From: an uncultured Gammaproteobacteria bacterium
GTDB lineage: Bacteria; Patescibacteriota; Patescibacteriia; UBA2591; UBA6264
Reading direction: 5' to 3'
Length of the DNA: 7,182 bases
Assembly (NCBI GenBank): GCA_964507075.1
Contig: CAZDOL010000020.1
Location: 1-7,182, forward strand
Shown here one piece after another: positions 430 through 4,331 of this stretch; position 1 is the stretch's first letter; each line of letters opens with the position of its first letter. The position numbers and the translations under genes were made by a program. The notes below the pieces were generated by a model. The model made no database searches. It worked only from the letters and a program-made list of their open reading frames with translations, and was not told the DNA's origin.

Positions 430-558
430 CTATCTGCCTCCTCCGCCTTCACCTCCACCCCTACCATCTCTAGGGCCTCCACCAAGTCCCCCTCCTTCTT
501 TTCTTTCTTCGCTCCTTATTGTTTCTTTGGGTAAAGAAATATTAACAACATTACGCAT
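430..558 (-). CDS. Hypothetical 42-aa Gly/Arg-rich (RGG-like) small protein; not in the supplied ORF track
   Basis: Hand translation of the minus strand: ATG at 558, TAG at 432-430, giving MRNVVNISLPKETIRSEERKEGGGLGGGPRDGRGGGEGGGGR. It ends 60-odd nt before the bidirectional hairpin. There is no SD, but most genes here lack one. The opposite strand is also open (a Pro-rich ORF), so coding status is uncertain. Confidence 0.3.
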   Translation of the reverse strand: MRNVVNISLPKETIRSEERKEGGGLGGGPRDGRGGGEGGGGR

Positions 559-2136: not shown

Positions 2137-2709
2137 TTATTTTTTAACTTCAAAATAAGCTTGAGGATGGCCACAAGAAGGACACTTGTCTATGGCCTCT
2201 TTTCCTTTATGCGTATATCCACATTTTCGACAAACCCAAACCACCTCTTCTTCTTTTTTGAACACTGCATTGTTTTCTAAAAATTCTAAAAAACCCTTGT
2301 ATCTATCTTCGTGATTAGCTTCGGCTTTAGCAATAGACCTTAATCTATTGGCAATGTCCAATAAATCTTCGCTCTCGGCTACATCAGCAAAATCTGGATA
2401 CATAATTGTATGTTCATAATTTTCCCCCTCAATTGCTGCTTTTAAATTTTTTTTTGTATCTTTTAAAATTGTTGGAGCGCCCACCTCAACCACGATTTCA
2501 TTATATTCTGCATTATCCCCCTTTAATTGATTAATCATTCTCATTAACCACTTAGCATGCTCTGTCTCTTGGTCAGCTGTTAATGTAAAATTAGCTGATA
2601 TTTCTTCATAACCCTCTTTCTTGGCAATTTTAGCATACATAGTATAACGATTTCTGGCTTGGCTTTCGCCAATAAATGCTTTTGTTAAATTTTTTATTGT
2701 TTTTTCCAT
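2137..2709 (-). CDS. rbr: Rubrerythrin, 190 aa (ferritin-like diiron domain plus C-terminal rubredoxin-like CxxC...CxxC)
   Basis: The N-terminus has GESQARNRY and ExxH (QETEHAKW, EGENYEH, AEANHEDRY) diiron ligand motifs. The C-terminus WVCRKCGY...CPSCGHP is the rubredoxin-type FeS4 site. Confidence 0.95.
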   Translation of the reverse strand: MEKTIKNLTKAFIGESQARNRYTMYAKIAKKEGYEEISANFTLTADQETEHAKWLMRMINQLKGDNAEYNEIVVEVGAPTILKDTKKNLKAAIEGENYEHTIMYPDFADVAESEDLLDIANRLRSIAKAEANHEDRYKGFLEFLENNAVFKKEEEVVWVCRKCGYTHKGKEAIDKCPSCGHPQAYFEVKK

Positions 2710-2993
2710 AATTAAATTACCTTAATTTATAATACAATGTTTTATTTAATTACAAGGTTCCTGAGCGGAGCGAAGGGTTCTTCTAATTAAATTACATTAT
2801 TATTTATAAAATAGAACTTAATTTCAACGTTCTCGACGAGCAAAGCGAGGAGAGGTTGTTATAATTAAATTACCTTAATTTATAATACAATGTTTTATTT
2901 AATTTCAAGGTTCCTGAGCGAAGCGAAGGGTTTTTCTAATTAAATTACTTTATTATTTATAAAATAATATTTAATTTATTTCAATTTTTTAAT
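2708..2993. repeat. Intergenic tandem array: four units (75/78/75 bp spacing) nested in a 153-bp higher-order duplication
   Basis: The exact 12-mer TAATTAAATTAC occurs at 2709, 2784, 2862 and 2937. Segment 2708-2813 matches 2861-2966 at 102/106 positions, with mismatches at 2752/2905, 2768/2921, 2780/2933 and 2796/2949. Three units carry a GC-rich core with conserved GAGC-NNN-GCGA-RG (2763-2776, 2838-2851, 2916-2929). The fourth unit decays into the 3' end of the upstream gene. Confidence 0.9.
2726..2755 (-). promoter_or_regulatory. Proximal candidate promoter of rbr (module 1 of the tandem array)
   Basis: Minus strand: TTGTAA (2755-2750), an 18-nt spacer, then TATAAA (2731-2726). Next come TTAAGG (a weak SD) and the palindrome TAATTTAATTA, which overlaps the A of the ATG at 2709. 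In AT-rich context -10-like hexamers arise easily by chance. Confidence 0.4.
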
Positions 2994-3323
2994 TTAAACT
3001 AAAACGCAGATTAATAAAATAATTACAACAGCCAAAAATAACCAACCAATGGTGTAGAATAATAATTTAATAGAATCTTTCTTTTGATTGTCCAAATAGA
3101 GATATATTGCTCTTCCCAACACCAGAAGACCAACAATTATCGCGGAAAGAACAAATAAAAGAAGAAGGGCAAAAGGCCCCCAGAAATCTTTCATTTTGCC
3201 AAAAATATTCTCTCCAAAAAACAAAAGCTGAGAAACAGCAAAAACATATACCAATGTTCCCATGGAATTAATTAAACTCCATGATAATAATTTTGCTTTG
3301 TTTTTGGTTTCTTTATTATCCAT
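2994..3323 (-). CDS. Hypothetical small membrane protein, 109 aa, three predicted TM helices
   Basis: Complete ORF with three long hydrophobic segments (GTLVYVFAVSQLLFF, FALLLLFVLSAIIVGLLVL, IGWLFLAVVIILLICVLV). I recognise no family. TATAAT (3338-3333, minus) lies 9 nt upstream of the ATG. Confidence 0.7.
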   Translation of the reverse strand: MDNKETKNKAKLLSWSLINSMGTLVYVFAVSQLLFFGENIFGKMKDFWGPFALLLLFVLSAIIVGLLVLGRAIYLYLDNQKKDSIKLLFYTIGWLFLAVVIILLICVLV

Positions 3324-3498
3324 ATTTTAATTATTATACACAAGTTAAGGTAATGTATAATTATTATAGCAGAATTTTTAAAACAAGGAAGCTTCCCGTG
3401 AGAACTGATGTAAAAACTTAATTTTTTAAAAAAAAATAATTGTTTATCTAAGCTAAACATCTAATTTCTTTGAATAAGAATCTCATCAAAAAGGTCAT

Positions 3499-3547: not shown

Positions 3548-4249
3548 CTATTGTGTTAACGGTGAAAATGCTGCAAAATACCGAGTTTTGCATTCATTTT
3601 TCTGAATCACGGCAATCGCTAAAGTGCTGCTTGCCATGGTGCCTGCCTCTTGATACAAAACCAAACCTGCTAAAATTCCCGCTTCGGTCCTTCCTTTTTG
3701 AAATACGGAAAAACCTATAGCCAAAAACACACTCTGCTTAGCTTTCTGACAAAGAGATACACCTGCAAACATATTTGCATCCTTCGAGGCCTTCTGAAAT
3801 CCAGAAAAACCTATAAATGTAGTGGCTGAACCTTCGCTAGCTTCTTGATGGCCGGAGAAACCGACCCAAACAGTAGCTCCAGATTTTGATTTTTGGCAAA
3901 AAGAGGCACCAGCAAGCATATTTGTTTTGTCCGCCATTTGATAAACAGAGAAACCAAACAATGTGGTAGCACTCTTTCCTGCTCGTTGATATCCGCTTCC
4001 AACCAGAGCAAAGGCCTTGTCTTCTGCGTCTTGATGGACGGAGAAGACGGAAATCACATTTTTGGCTTGGGCGCTACCTAAAACCGTTATAACTGTACCA
4101 TTAATATTCAATGGCATGCAAAGTAGAGCCACTATCGCCAAGCCCTTGATGTAATAAGCTAATGATTGGAATTTTTCTGGTGTTATCACGAAAAACCAAA
4201 TCAGGAAAAACAACGTGACATTAGCAAAAAAAATCGTTAGGTTGTTCAT
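3548..4249 (-). CDS. Membrane-anchored tandem-repeat protein, 233 aa, about 11 degenerate 15-17-aa [hydrophobic-G-F/A-S-x-aromatic]-Q-x-A repeats
   Basis: The ORF is open to 4312, but that extension (MIIFYQLLFKIKKRKKRKEIE) covers the promoter and 5' UTR. The ATG at 4249 is preceded by AAAGGAG with 6-nt spacing. The N-terminus is hydrophobic (LTIFFANVTLFFLIWFFVI; GLAIVALLCMPL). Periodic repeats with an invariant Gln follow. ORFs 3514-3720(+), 3811-4011(-) and 3893-4081(+) are frame shadows. Confidence 0.8.
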   Translation of the reverse strand: MNNLTIFFANVTLFFLIWFFVITPEKFQSLAYYIKGLAIVALLCMPLNINGTVITVLGSAQAKNVISVFSVHQDAEDKAFALVGSGYQRAGKSATTLFGFSVYQMADKTNMLAGASFCQKSKSGATVWVGFSGHQEASEGSATTFIGFSGFQKASKDANMFAGVSLCQKAKQSVFLAIGFSVFQKGRTEAGILAGLVLYQEAGTMASSTLAIAVIQKNECKTRYFAAFSPLTQ

Positions 4250-4302
4250 TTCAATCTCCTTTCTTTTTTTTCTTTTTTTTATTTTAAAGAGTAATTGATA
4301 AA

Positions 4303-4331
4303 ATATTATCACATTTTTGCCTTTTTGTCAA
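4303..4331 (-). promoter_or_regulatory. Strong sigma70-type promoter (with extended -10) for the repeat-protein gene
   Basis: Minus strand: perfect TTGACA (4331-4326), a 17-nt spacer ending in TGA (TGn, 4311-4309), then TAATAT (4308-4303). The implied TSS near 4296 gives a ~47-nt A-rich leader ending in AGGAG. Confidence 0.65.

Follow-up and report, generated by a model that had tools for sequence, protein, structure and literature searches.

A dispersed, probably mobile two-hairpin repeat forms an array upstream of rubrerythrin in a Patescibacteria bacterium

The stretch of DNA studied here (hereafter the window) comprises 7,182 nucleotides of contig CAZDOL010000020.1 (assembly GCA_964507075.1) from an uncultured bacterium of the Patescibacteria, or Candidate Phyla Radiation (CPR), and our subject is the spacer upstream of its rubrerythrin gene (rbr). 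This spacer is probably a pile-up of four co-oriented modular repeats of ~75 bp, members of a dispersed and probably mobile family whose AT-rich module likely gives rbr its promoter or leader. Each copy would join an AT-rich hairpin, with a 12-mer as its outer arm, to a GC mini-hairpin with tandem G.A pairs and a GNA triloop; three of the copies would be complete and one would lack the GC module. The modules are kept with compensatory changes, lie between genes in either orientation, have recombined into arrays that differ between lineages and, in at least one case, form a discrete insertion. That the repeat is a dispersed family is near certain, and it is likely a mobile, non-autonomous element. 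A first-pass annotation, made from the letters of the window alone, had described the spacer as an array of promoter/operator-like modules, and its observation was largely correct.

The repeat array upstream of rbr

The rbr gene (2137..2709, minus strand) is an open reading frame (ORF) for 190 amino acids with Pfam Rubrerythrin and RUBY_RBDX matches, and its ATG (2709-2707) immediately adjoins the end of the first repeat unit. Upstream of rbr lies an ORF for a 109-amino-acid membrane protein (2994..3323, minus strand), whose stop codon adjoins the fourth unit; no terminator consisting of a hairpin and a T-run was flagged in the spacer after this gene. From the rbr start to this stop codon, the spacer measures 284 bp, with a G+C content of 23% vs 32.5% for the window. 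The 12-mer TAATTAAATTAC occurs exactly four times (2709, 2784, 2862, and 2937; spacing 75/78/75 bp), a count that none of 200 shuffles reached, and positions 2708-2813 and 2861-2966 are identical at 102 of 106 sites. Both features had been described in the first-pass annotation and were borne out, and its remark that the duplication boundary carries ATG in unit 1 and ATA in unit 3 was correct. The similarity between the two halves extends to 2824/2977 at 94% and ends exactly at the border between AT module and GC core. Tandem Repeats Finder described the array as 3.1 copies with a period of 78.

All four units lie on the plus strand, so that inverted doublets of the REPIN type do not occur. 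Unit 1 (2709..2783; type A, 75 bp) consists of an AT module and a GC core and matched our covariance model with 87.0 bits (2707-2788). Unit 2 (2784..2861; type B, 78 bp) has a B-type AT module and an extended GC core with two G.A blocks (22.1 bits, 2790-2859). Unit 3 (2862..2936; type A, 75 bp), 72/75 identical to unit 1, matched with 87.1 bits (2860-2941). Unit 4 (2937..2977), delimited by motif search and half-to-half alignment, is a B-type AT module alone, without a GC core. The GC core motif GAGC-NNN-GCGARG accordingly has three matches in the array (2763, 2838, and 2916), in units 1-3, and not the four that the description of a GC core in every unit had implied.

Nine contigs fetched from separate samples (ENA and JGI) carry a 284-bp spacer that is 100% identical, and the array is therefore no misassembly, an artefact that the first-pass annotation had considered. 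No copy-number variant of the array was seen among these nine contigs. Two short contigs (L009 and L012) terminate within the array.

Two hairpins supported by covariation

We aligned thirty non-redundant full units from the window and other contigs and ran RNAalifold unguided, which predicted two hairpins on the plus strand of the window. The first is the AT hairpin, whose arms in unit 1 (2709..2752, plus strand) are 2709-2717 (TAATTAAAT) and 2744-2752 (ATTTAATTA). In units 2-4 the arms, taken from RNAalifold and pair counts on the same strand, are 2785-2792/2816-2823, 2863-2870/2897-2904, and 2938-2945/2969-2976. The arms read AATTAAAY / RTTTAATT, with the 12-mer as the outer one; TATA is present in every loop (~20-28 nt long) and TACCTT in most of them. 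The 5-1-5 palindrome that had been noted within the 12-mer is present in the sequence, but it is the outer arm of a longer inverted repeat in which AATTAAAT pairs with ATTTAATT ~27 nt away.

The second is the GC hairpin, which is 29-31 nt long and is built from a triloop, two Watson-Crick pairs, a tandem G.A/A.G block, and then a stem. Its consensus is AAGGTTCYT-GA-GC-GNA-GC-GA-ARGGTTCTT, of which YGA-GC-GNA-GC-GAR is the mini-hairpin part. In unit 1 it reads AAGGTTCCT-GA-GC-GGA-GC-GA-AGGGTTCTT (2754..2782, plus strand; consensus structure, pair counts, and hairpin scan); it combines a GNA triloop with tandem G.A/A.G pairs and, on the outside, with G.T wobbles, which pair on the plus strand only. 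Unit 3 has the same hairpin with a GAA loop (2907..2935, plus strand; hairpin scan and consensus structure). In unit 2 the form CTC-GA-C-GA-GC-AAA-GC-GA-G-GA-GAG (2832..2854, plus strand) was read from the sequence and falls into the same motif class as the scanned hairpins. The core is flanked by AAGGTTCTT, which is self-complementary only with wobbles and pairs on the plus strand only. Comparing the GC hairpin sequence CCTGAGCGAAGCGAAGG with its complement, strand asymmetry is predicted.

Across the aligned units, 98.9% of the cells are paired, and the covariation score exceeds those of 500/500 shuffles and of all slid controls. The closing pair of the GC core sits outside the core search pattern and thus offers an unbiased test: in low-GC loci it is T-A 194 times, C-G 38 times, T.G 4 times, and another combination once, with no C.A. 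The arms of the AT hairpin also covary (C-G 12 vs U-A 11; A-U 27 vs G-C 3), and both variants are present in the single genome bin JAHIEL01; they therefore point to base pairing and not to the sequence preference of a protein. Hairpins of the class stem-GA-NN-loop-NN-GA-stem were ~5x commoner than control motifs in core-bearing loci. They have many outer stems, their inner pair alternates between GC/GC and AC/GT, and their loops are GAA, GTA, AAA, GGA, GCA, and GTTA. The B core of unit 2 recurs in L230 with a compensatory change from GAGC/GCGA to GAAC/GTGA.

Searches for tRNA, tmRNA, and Rfam families gave no match in the spacer or in twelve array-bearing loci. A kink-turn RNA was rejected, since the G.A pairs lie between Watson-Crick pairs as a symmetric 2x2 internal loop and the pattern with a three-nucleotide bulge is missing. 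An intrinsic terminator was likewise rejected: none was flagged in the spacer, the orientation of the core is unbiased, and canonical terminators here differ. Ordinary terminators with a hairpin and a T-run lie in the window at 346-371 and 652-672, for example CCACTTTCATTAGTGG TTTTTTG after a cold-shock gene, so the genome has canonical terminators unlike the GC core.

We considered whether the modules act mainly as RNA, that is, as 5' leaders, small RNAs, or terminators, with the spread of the DNA copies as a by-product. Covariation and G.U wobbles do favour one strand (variable wobbles 8 on the plus strand vs 1-2 on the other), consensus TTGACA-17-TATAAT promoters read into the favoured strand at some copies (L116, L119, and L230), and a start in unit n would put the hairpins of unit n-1 into the leader. 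However, for rbr and for half of the neighbouring genes the favoured strand is the antisense one, either internal promoter candidate would initiate within the AT hairpin and lose one of its arms, no Rfam family matches, and the genome has ordinary terminators elsewhere. We regard an RNA role as rather unlikely, and the same holds for its specific version, in which the GC hairpin would be a protein-binding G.A motif and the AT hairpin would mask the region before the AUG.

Dispersal of the repeat in Patescibacteria

The window lies in a 23-kb contig (L011) that holds a second copy of the repeat, 10 kb off (L011:239-346), just before a peptidase S51 gene and inverted relative to the rbr array. 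In metagenome contigs, an exact scan for the 19 specified bases of the core gave at least 117 stretches with at least 162 matches; tandem arrays of 2-7 identical units with a period of 42-66 bp are common among the metagenome matches listed. The same scan over one genome per species (185,579 representatives) found 112 stretches in ~60 low-GC bins, a patchy distribution given how well the sequence is conserved. Genome bins hold several repeat loci each, and L011 has two of them within its 23 kb. The first-pass annotation had taken the blocks for a conserved, functional-looking set and not for neutral slippage, which agrees with the recurrence of the modules, with compensatory changes, in hundreds of contigs. 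The motif, whose absence elsewhere would in that annotation have favoured a neutral duplication, does occur widely beyond the rbr locus, but as a dispersed repeat family and not as an rbr regulon.

The named bins that carry the core are nearly all Patescibacteria (Daviesbacteria, Woesebacteria, Shapirobacteria, Gottesmanbacteria, Nealsonbacteria, Paceibacteria, Berkelbacteria, Gribaldobacteria, and Minisyncoccia). Outside this group, one Desantisbacteria bin (MNUO01; L165, L183, and L224) holds genuine copies of the core; they include a 3-unit array with a 66-bp period, and horizontal spread or contamination of the bin is possible. Core matches in Pseudomonas, Dethiobacter, Desulfonatronovibrio, and similar genomes were discarded as chance matches within coding DNA. 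A search of viral contigs returned 0 matches to the core, and a viral origin was rejected. Some arrays of hairpin repeats adjoin tRNA genes (L179:742-813, L020:190-274, L085, and L187), and the one in L179 stands upstream of a 16S rRNA gene. No description of the core sequence or of such repeats in the CPR was found in open-access texts.

The repeat shows little preference for direction. Taking all cores together, the gene downstream shares the strand of the core in 101 cases and lies on the opposite one in 81; around full units, the flanking genes are co-directional 17 vs 16 times, convergent in 4 cases and divergent in 4. This orientation-independent, intergenic placement would suit modules that serve as double-stranded binding sites of some abundant protein of the chromosome or of transcription, maintained by selection and multiplied through recombination and not through transposition. 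The strong conservation of the sequence itself (CAAGGTTCTTGAGCGAAGCGAAAGGTTCTTAT) and the direct repeat of AAGGTTCTT 20 bp apart would suit such a protein as well. However, the pyrimidine-purine covariation hits different positions in the two direct repeats, which fits base pairing only, one copy lies within a gene whose ORF is restored on its removal, and only ~60 of the species representatives carry the core. Such a duplex-binding site is in our judgement improbable.

Arrays upstream of rbr in related lineages

Two related loci show how the array has changed. In L101 (Rbr 87% identical in amino acids), two modules stand upstream of rbr, and the proximal type-A module and the B-like AT module align with units 1 and 2 of the window; the neighbouring gene, which is typA-like, differs from that in the window. 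In L208 (Rbr 85% identical), there are three modules, two of which are identical 81-bp copies with the GC core TCTGC-GA-AC-GCA-GT-GA-GCAGG. The numbers upstream of rbr are thus two in L101, three in L208, and four in the window. As judged from the alignments, the proximal A and B modules thus travel with rbr, and further modules vary in number and kind by lineage.

The distal A-B pair of the window (units 3 and 4) appears as a lineage-specific addition that ends at module borders, for which unequal recombination or repeated insertion beside an existing copy fits better than random slippage. Neutral duplication of the region upstream of rbr, recent and local, would explain the near-identity of the two halves. 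However, for the modules themselves it is contradicted by a widespread and conserved family; the similarity, moreover, stops at module borders, and A and B modules stand upstream of rbr in relatives with other neighbouring genes. We consider it highly improbable as an account of the array, although it could apply to the distal A-B pair alone.

Probable mobility and the candidate enzyme

One insertion is in L065, where a 73-bp copy (TATAATTAAATTAC...GGGTTCTTATA), very close to unit 3 of the window, lies inside a Y1_Tnp-like ORF. When this copy was deleted in silico, an ORF of 234 amino acids was restored, and its matches to Pfam Y1_Tnp (residues 79-152) and NCBIfam REP_Tyr_transpos (78-156) both span the junction at residue 150. 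The left flank of most copies is (T/C)AT and their right flank TAT, and one copy has TCT on both sides. The unit ends, TAATTAAAYTAC on the left and the reverse-complemented ATAAGAACC on the right, match over only ~4-5 nt. No terminal inverted repeats of the whole unit were found, so the unit lacks the hallmark of miniature inverted-repeat transposable elements; taken by itself, the AT module has arms that might pass for inverted repeats, yet they covary. The two hairpins occupy columns 5-48 and 51-79 of the 85-column unit, and the G.T and G.A pairs form on one strand only. We infer that a single-strand mechanism of the IS200/IS605 or REP type would be favoured, given hairpins that extend to both ends, a strand-asymmetric structure, and the lack of inverted repeats.

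In a search for empty sites by BLAST of the flanks, we found one clean case, which belongs to a different hairpin element. This 84-bp element, with the stem-loop GCGGC-GAA-GCCGC, sits in L029 (4194-4276) inside the loop of a further repeat unit; L090 (1823-1825) and L164 lack it at TTATA|TG, the DNA being otherwise 100% identical. It shows that small hairpin insertions occur in these genomes and is no evidence for the repeat family itself.

A RAYT-like Y1 gene for 224 amino acids (L011:4900-5640) lies ~5 kb from the array and ~5 kb past the window end. Its product scored 72 bits with the RAYT model NF047646 (cut-off 80) vs 22 bits with an IS200 model, and its family has at least 7,967 members, 65-88% identical, across Patescibacteria. 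In L011 the gene is flanked, as RAYT genes are, by inverted hairpins, AAAAAGGTGTCAGGAACCTTTTT, that share 11 nt with the core, and its stop codon lies within the right-hand repeat. At five further loci, the flanks of such genes read AAAAGG(G/T)GTCAG..CCTTTT followed by TATGATATAAT; conservation holds for the upstream flank but not for the stretch in common with the core. As a mobiliser of the repeat this gene was set aside, the link being weak: its flank differs, the 11 shared nucleotides are unconserved, and homologues occur without the core nearby. In L208, an internally deleted RAYT-like gene (3050-3290), with N- and C-terminal pieces and an end hairpin, lies ~1 kb upstream of the rbr array.

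The AT module as a probable promoter or leader

Read toward rbr, each unit has the order GC core, TTG(A/T)AA, an AT-rich stretch with TATA, TAAGGTA, and the 12-mer. Of 83 non-redundant copies of this 12-mer, 57 continue with TA and 11 with TG, which forms an ATG. All 11 TG cases start ORFs of at least 60 codons, and these belong to nine unrelated families: rubrerythrin (in three lineages), DUF3048, PolyA_pol/HD (CCA/polyA polymerase), NTP transferase, SpoIID, triose-phosphate isomerase, LigB, ribosomal protein L19, and DUF4013. Because the end of the 12-mer adjoins the ATG of 11 genes, it is plausible that the AT module serves as a generic promoter and/or leader, and the promoter role that the first-pass annotation had proposed for the AT-rich part gains from this. 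The bases AAGG before the 12-mer are unconserved (AAGG, AAAG, and AATG). In the eight sequences measured, 16-18 nt separate the TATA box from the ATG, and a start 6-8 nt past the TATA box would leave a leader of ~6-11 nt.

In a consensus scan of the array, the best sigma-70-like site is TTGAAA-17-AATAAT in unit 2 (2799..2827, minus strand; 10 of 12 positions), and a weaker one is TTAAAA-17-TATTAT in unit 4 (9 of 12). The site nearest to rbr, TTGTAA-18-TATAAA followed by TTAAGGTAATTTAATT and then the ATG (2726..2755, minus strand), was read from the sequence and is promoter-like, although the scan did not flag it. Two neighbouring genes carry TATAAT only 8-9 nt before their ATG, namely the membrane-protein gene (window 3324-3360, minus strand) and the peptidase S51 gene (L011:330-356); as far as sequence can tell, these distances suggest leaderless or very short-leader mRNAs in the organism.

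One possibility raised in the first-pass annotation was a stack of promoters with a common operator, either the 12-mer or the GC core or both, through which a regulator would control this oxidative-stress gene. Arrays of two, three, and four modules directly upstream of rbr in three related lineages, together with the sigma-70-like site of unit 2, would agree with it. However, the nine functionally unrelated families that share the abutting leader weaken this interpretation, and the list does not bear out the expected enrichment in redox or stress genes. Furthermore, the core occurs in either orientation, a copy stands inverted before the peptidase gene, another interrupts a gene, and the covariation of the palindrome arms within one bin indicates base pairing. 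A shared operator is thus very unlikely, and a redox-specific operator, whether rbr-specific or of the PerR/Fur/Rex type, is not supported.

Weighing the proposed explanation

On the explanation that we prefer, copies of the repeat would have spread non-autonomously next to T-A-T sites, probably via a single-stranded intermediate in which the hairpins are recognised, and unequal recombination between copies would then have altered their number. Toward rbr, the AT module would act as a generic promoter and/or contribute a short leader with GTAATTTAATT-ATG at its end. The one or two units nearest to rbr would then drive it, and the distal A-B pair may add transcription starts or put the proximal hairpins into a longer leader.

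Several results count against parts of this explanation. With regard to structure, the folding energies of single units, as DNA or RNA and on either strand, are no better than those of shuffles (z -1.7 to +0.35), and because of this the case for structure rests on covariation and not on energy. With regard to mobility, copies with an exact core number a few per genome and not hundreds, and the L065 junction is compatible with a target-site duplication of 0-4 bp whose length cannot be fixed. We found no transposase linked to the repeat, no canonical core within 10 kb of the five RAYT-like homologues, and Y1 homologues in only 4 of ~200 core-bearing loci. With regard to the promoter, no long ORF begins within 80 nt of roughly half of the AT modules, and TTGAAA and the TATA box stand 11-14 nt apart in some subfamilies but 17-18 nt apart in others. 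The workable promoter geometry that had been described earlier holds only in part: units 1 and 3 do have 18-nt spacers with TATAAA, but in units 1, 3, and 4 the TATAAA box is missing the conserved last T, promoter-like hexamer pairs are not enriched (4 found vs 6.0 ± 3.0 in shuffles), and the scan flagged units 2 and 4 instead.

A broader proposal, which we put forward tentatively and hold to be possible but doubtful, is that the repeat represents an undescribed modular family throughout the CPR. Its GC mini-hairpin, strand-asymmetric and made of tandem sheared G.A pairs, a GNA triloop, and an outer stem of wobbles only, would be recognised as single-stranded DNA by an enzyme, and its AT module would be a portable promoter or leader that by stacking rewires how housekeeping genes are expressed in these reduced genomes.

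Comparison with known repeat systems

The repeat resembles several known systems and lacks the defining features of each, such as the tag, matching RAYT flanks, inverted doublets, or terminal inverted repeats. With the REP/BIME/REPIN-RAYT systems of Enterobacteria and Pseudomonas it shares short imperfect intergenic palindromes in multiple copies, mosaic clusters, covarying stems, and a RAYT-like Y1 gene in the contig; the length of its GC hairpin also falls within the 20-40 nt of REP and REPIN palindromes. In REP systems one end of the palindrome bears a tag, GTAG or CGTC (PMC3733652), whereas the consensus CAAGGTTCTTGAGCGAAGCGAAAGGTTCTTAT has neither. Moreover, the units described here are co-oriented and have few copies per genome, and the RAYT-like gene is flanked by another hairpin. 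REPs are lineage-specific, whereas the core of this repeat hardly changes between distant CPR classes.

BOX elements of Streptococcus pneumoniae (boxA-boxB(n)-boxC) are similar in their variable tandem modules, intergenic position near gene starts, predicted hairpins, and suspected effects on expression. They have no sequence relation to the repeat and belong to another host group, and the repeat differs in having two kinds of hairpin, one of them with tandem G.A pairs. The Correia elements of Neisseria (CREE/NEMIS) and mobile promoters (PMC3575422) are likewise small and non-autonomous, use TA-rich sites, and carry outward promoter-like boxes before unrelated genes. However, Correia elements show distinct terminal inverted repeats, which the repeat unit as a whole lacks, together with a TA duplication, and the promoter of the repeat is putative.

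Palindrome-associated elements (PATEs) derived from IS200/IS605 come close in lacking terminal inverted repeats, in hairpins that reach both ends, in strand asymmetry, in a putative (T/C)AT target, and in head-to-tail stacking; the two end hairpins of the repeat are unlike each other, and no cognate TnpA was found. TIGR-Tas arrays (PMC12045711; bioRxiv 10.64898/2026.09.09.750476) also consist of tandem CPR hairpins, with a box C/D-like G.A flavour and CUU at the stem base. In contrast, the units of the repeat are identical within an array, there is no variable spacer pair, and the core is conserved between genomes. A TIGR-Tas array was rejected because the 23-kb contig has no tas gene with a Nop domain and the identical units of the arrays have no spacers. 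What is unusual about the repeat is the architecture of tandem G.A pairs and a GNA triloop, the near-identical core across distant CPR classes, and a leader that adjoins start codons exactly.

Other features of the contig

Three further features were observed. A second gene for a 109-amino-acid membrane protein in L011, 74% identical to the gene at 2994-3323 of the window, is flanked by a direct repeat of ~100 nt (L011:1140-1244 and 1725-1810), 83-89% identical and partly GC-rich. The window also encodes a predicted membrane protein of 254 amino acids (3548-4312, minus strand) with many internal GFSxxQxAxxxA repeats and no Pfam match. Finally, a Gly/Arg-rich ORF of 42 amino acids (430-558, minus strand), present as a gene call in public contigs, forms a short GC-rich island in AT-rich DNA and has no Rfam match.

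Conclusions

CPR genomes are very small and have short spacers, and their promoters and small repeats are almost unstudied. The same repeat inserts into genes and precedes the genes for rubrerythrin, triose-phosphate isomerase, and ribosomal protein L19. For annotation this is a warning, as a repeat array before a stress gene need not be a sign of stress-specific control. A 31-nt hairpin that is near-identical across distant CPR classes would offer a handle on how expression signals are distributed in these genomes, how the genomes rearrange, and which enzyme mobilises the repeat.

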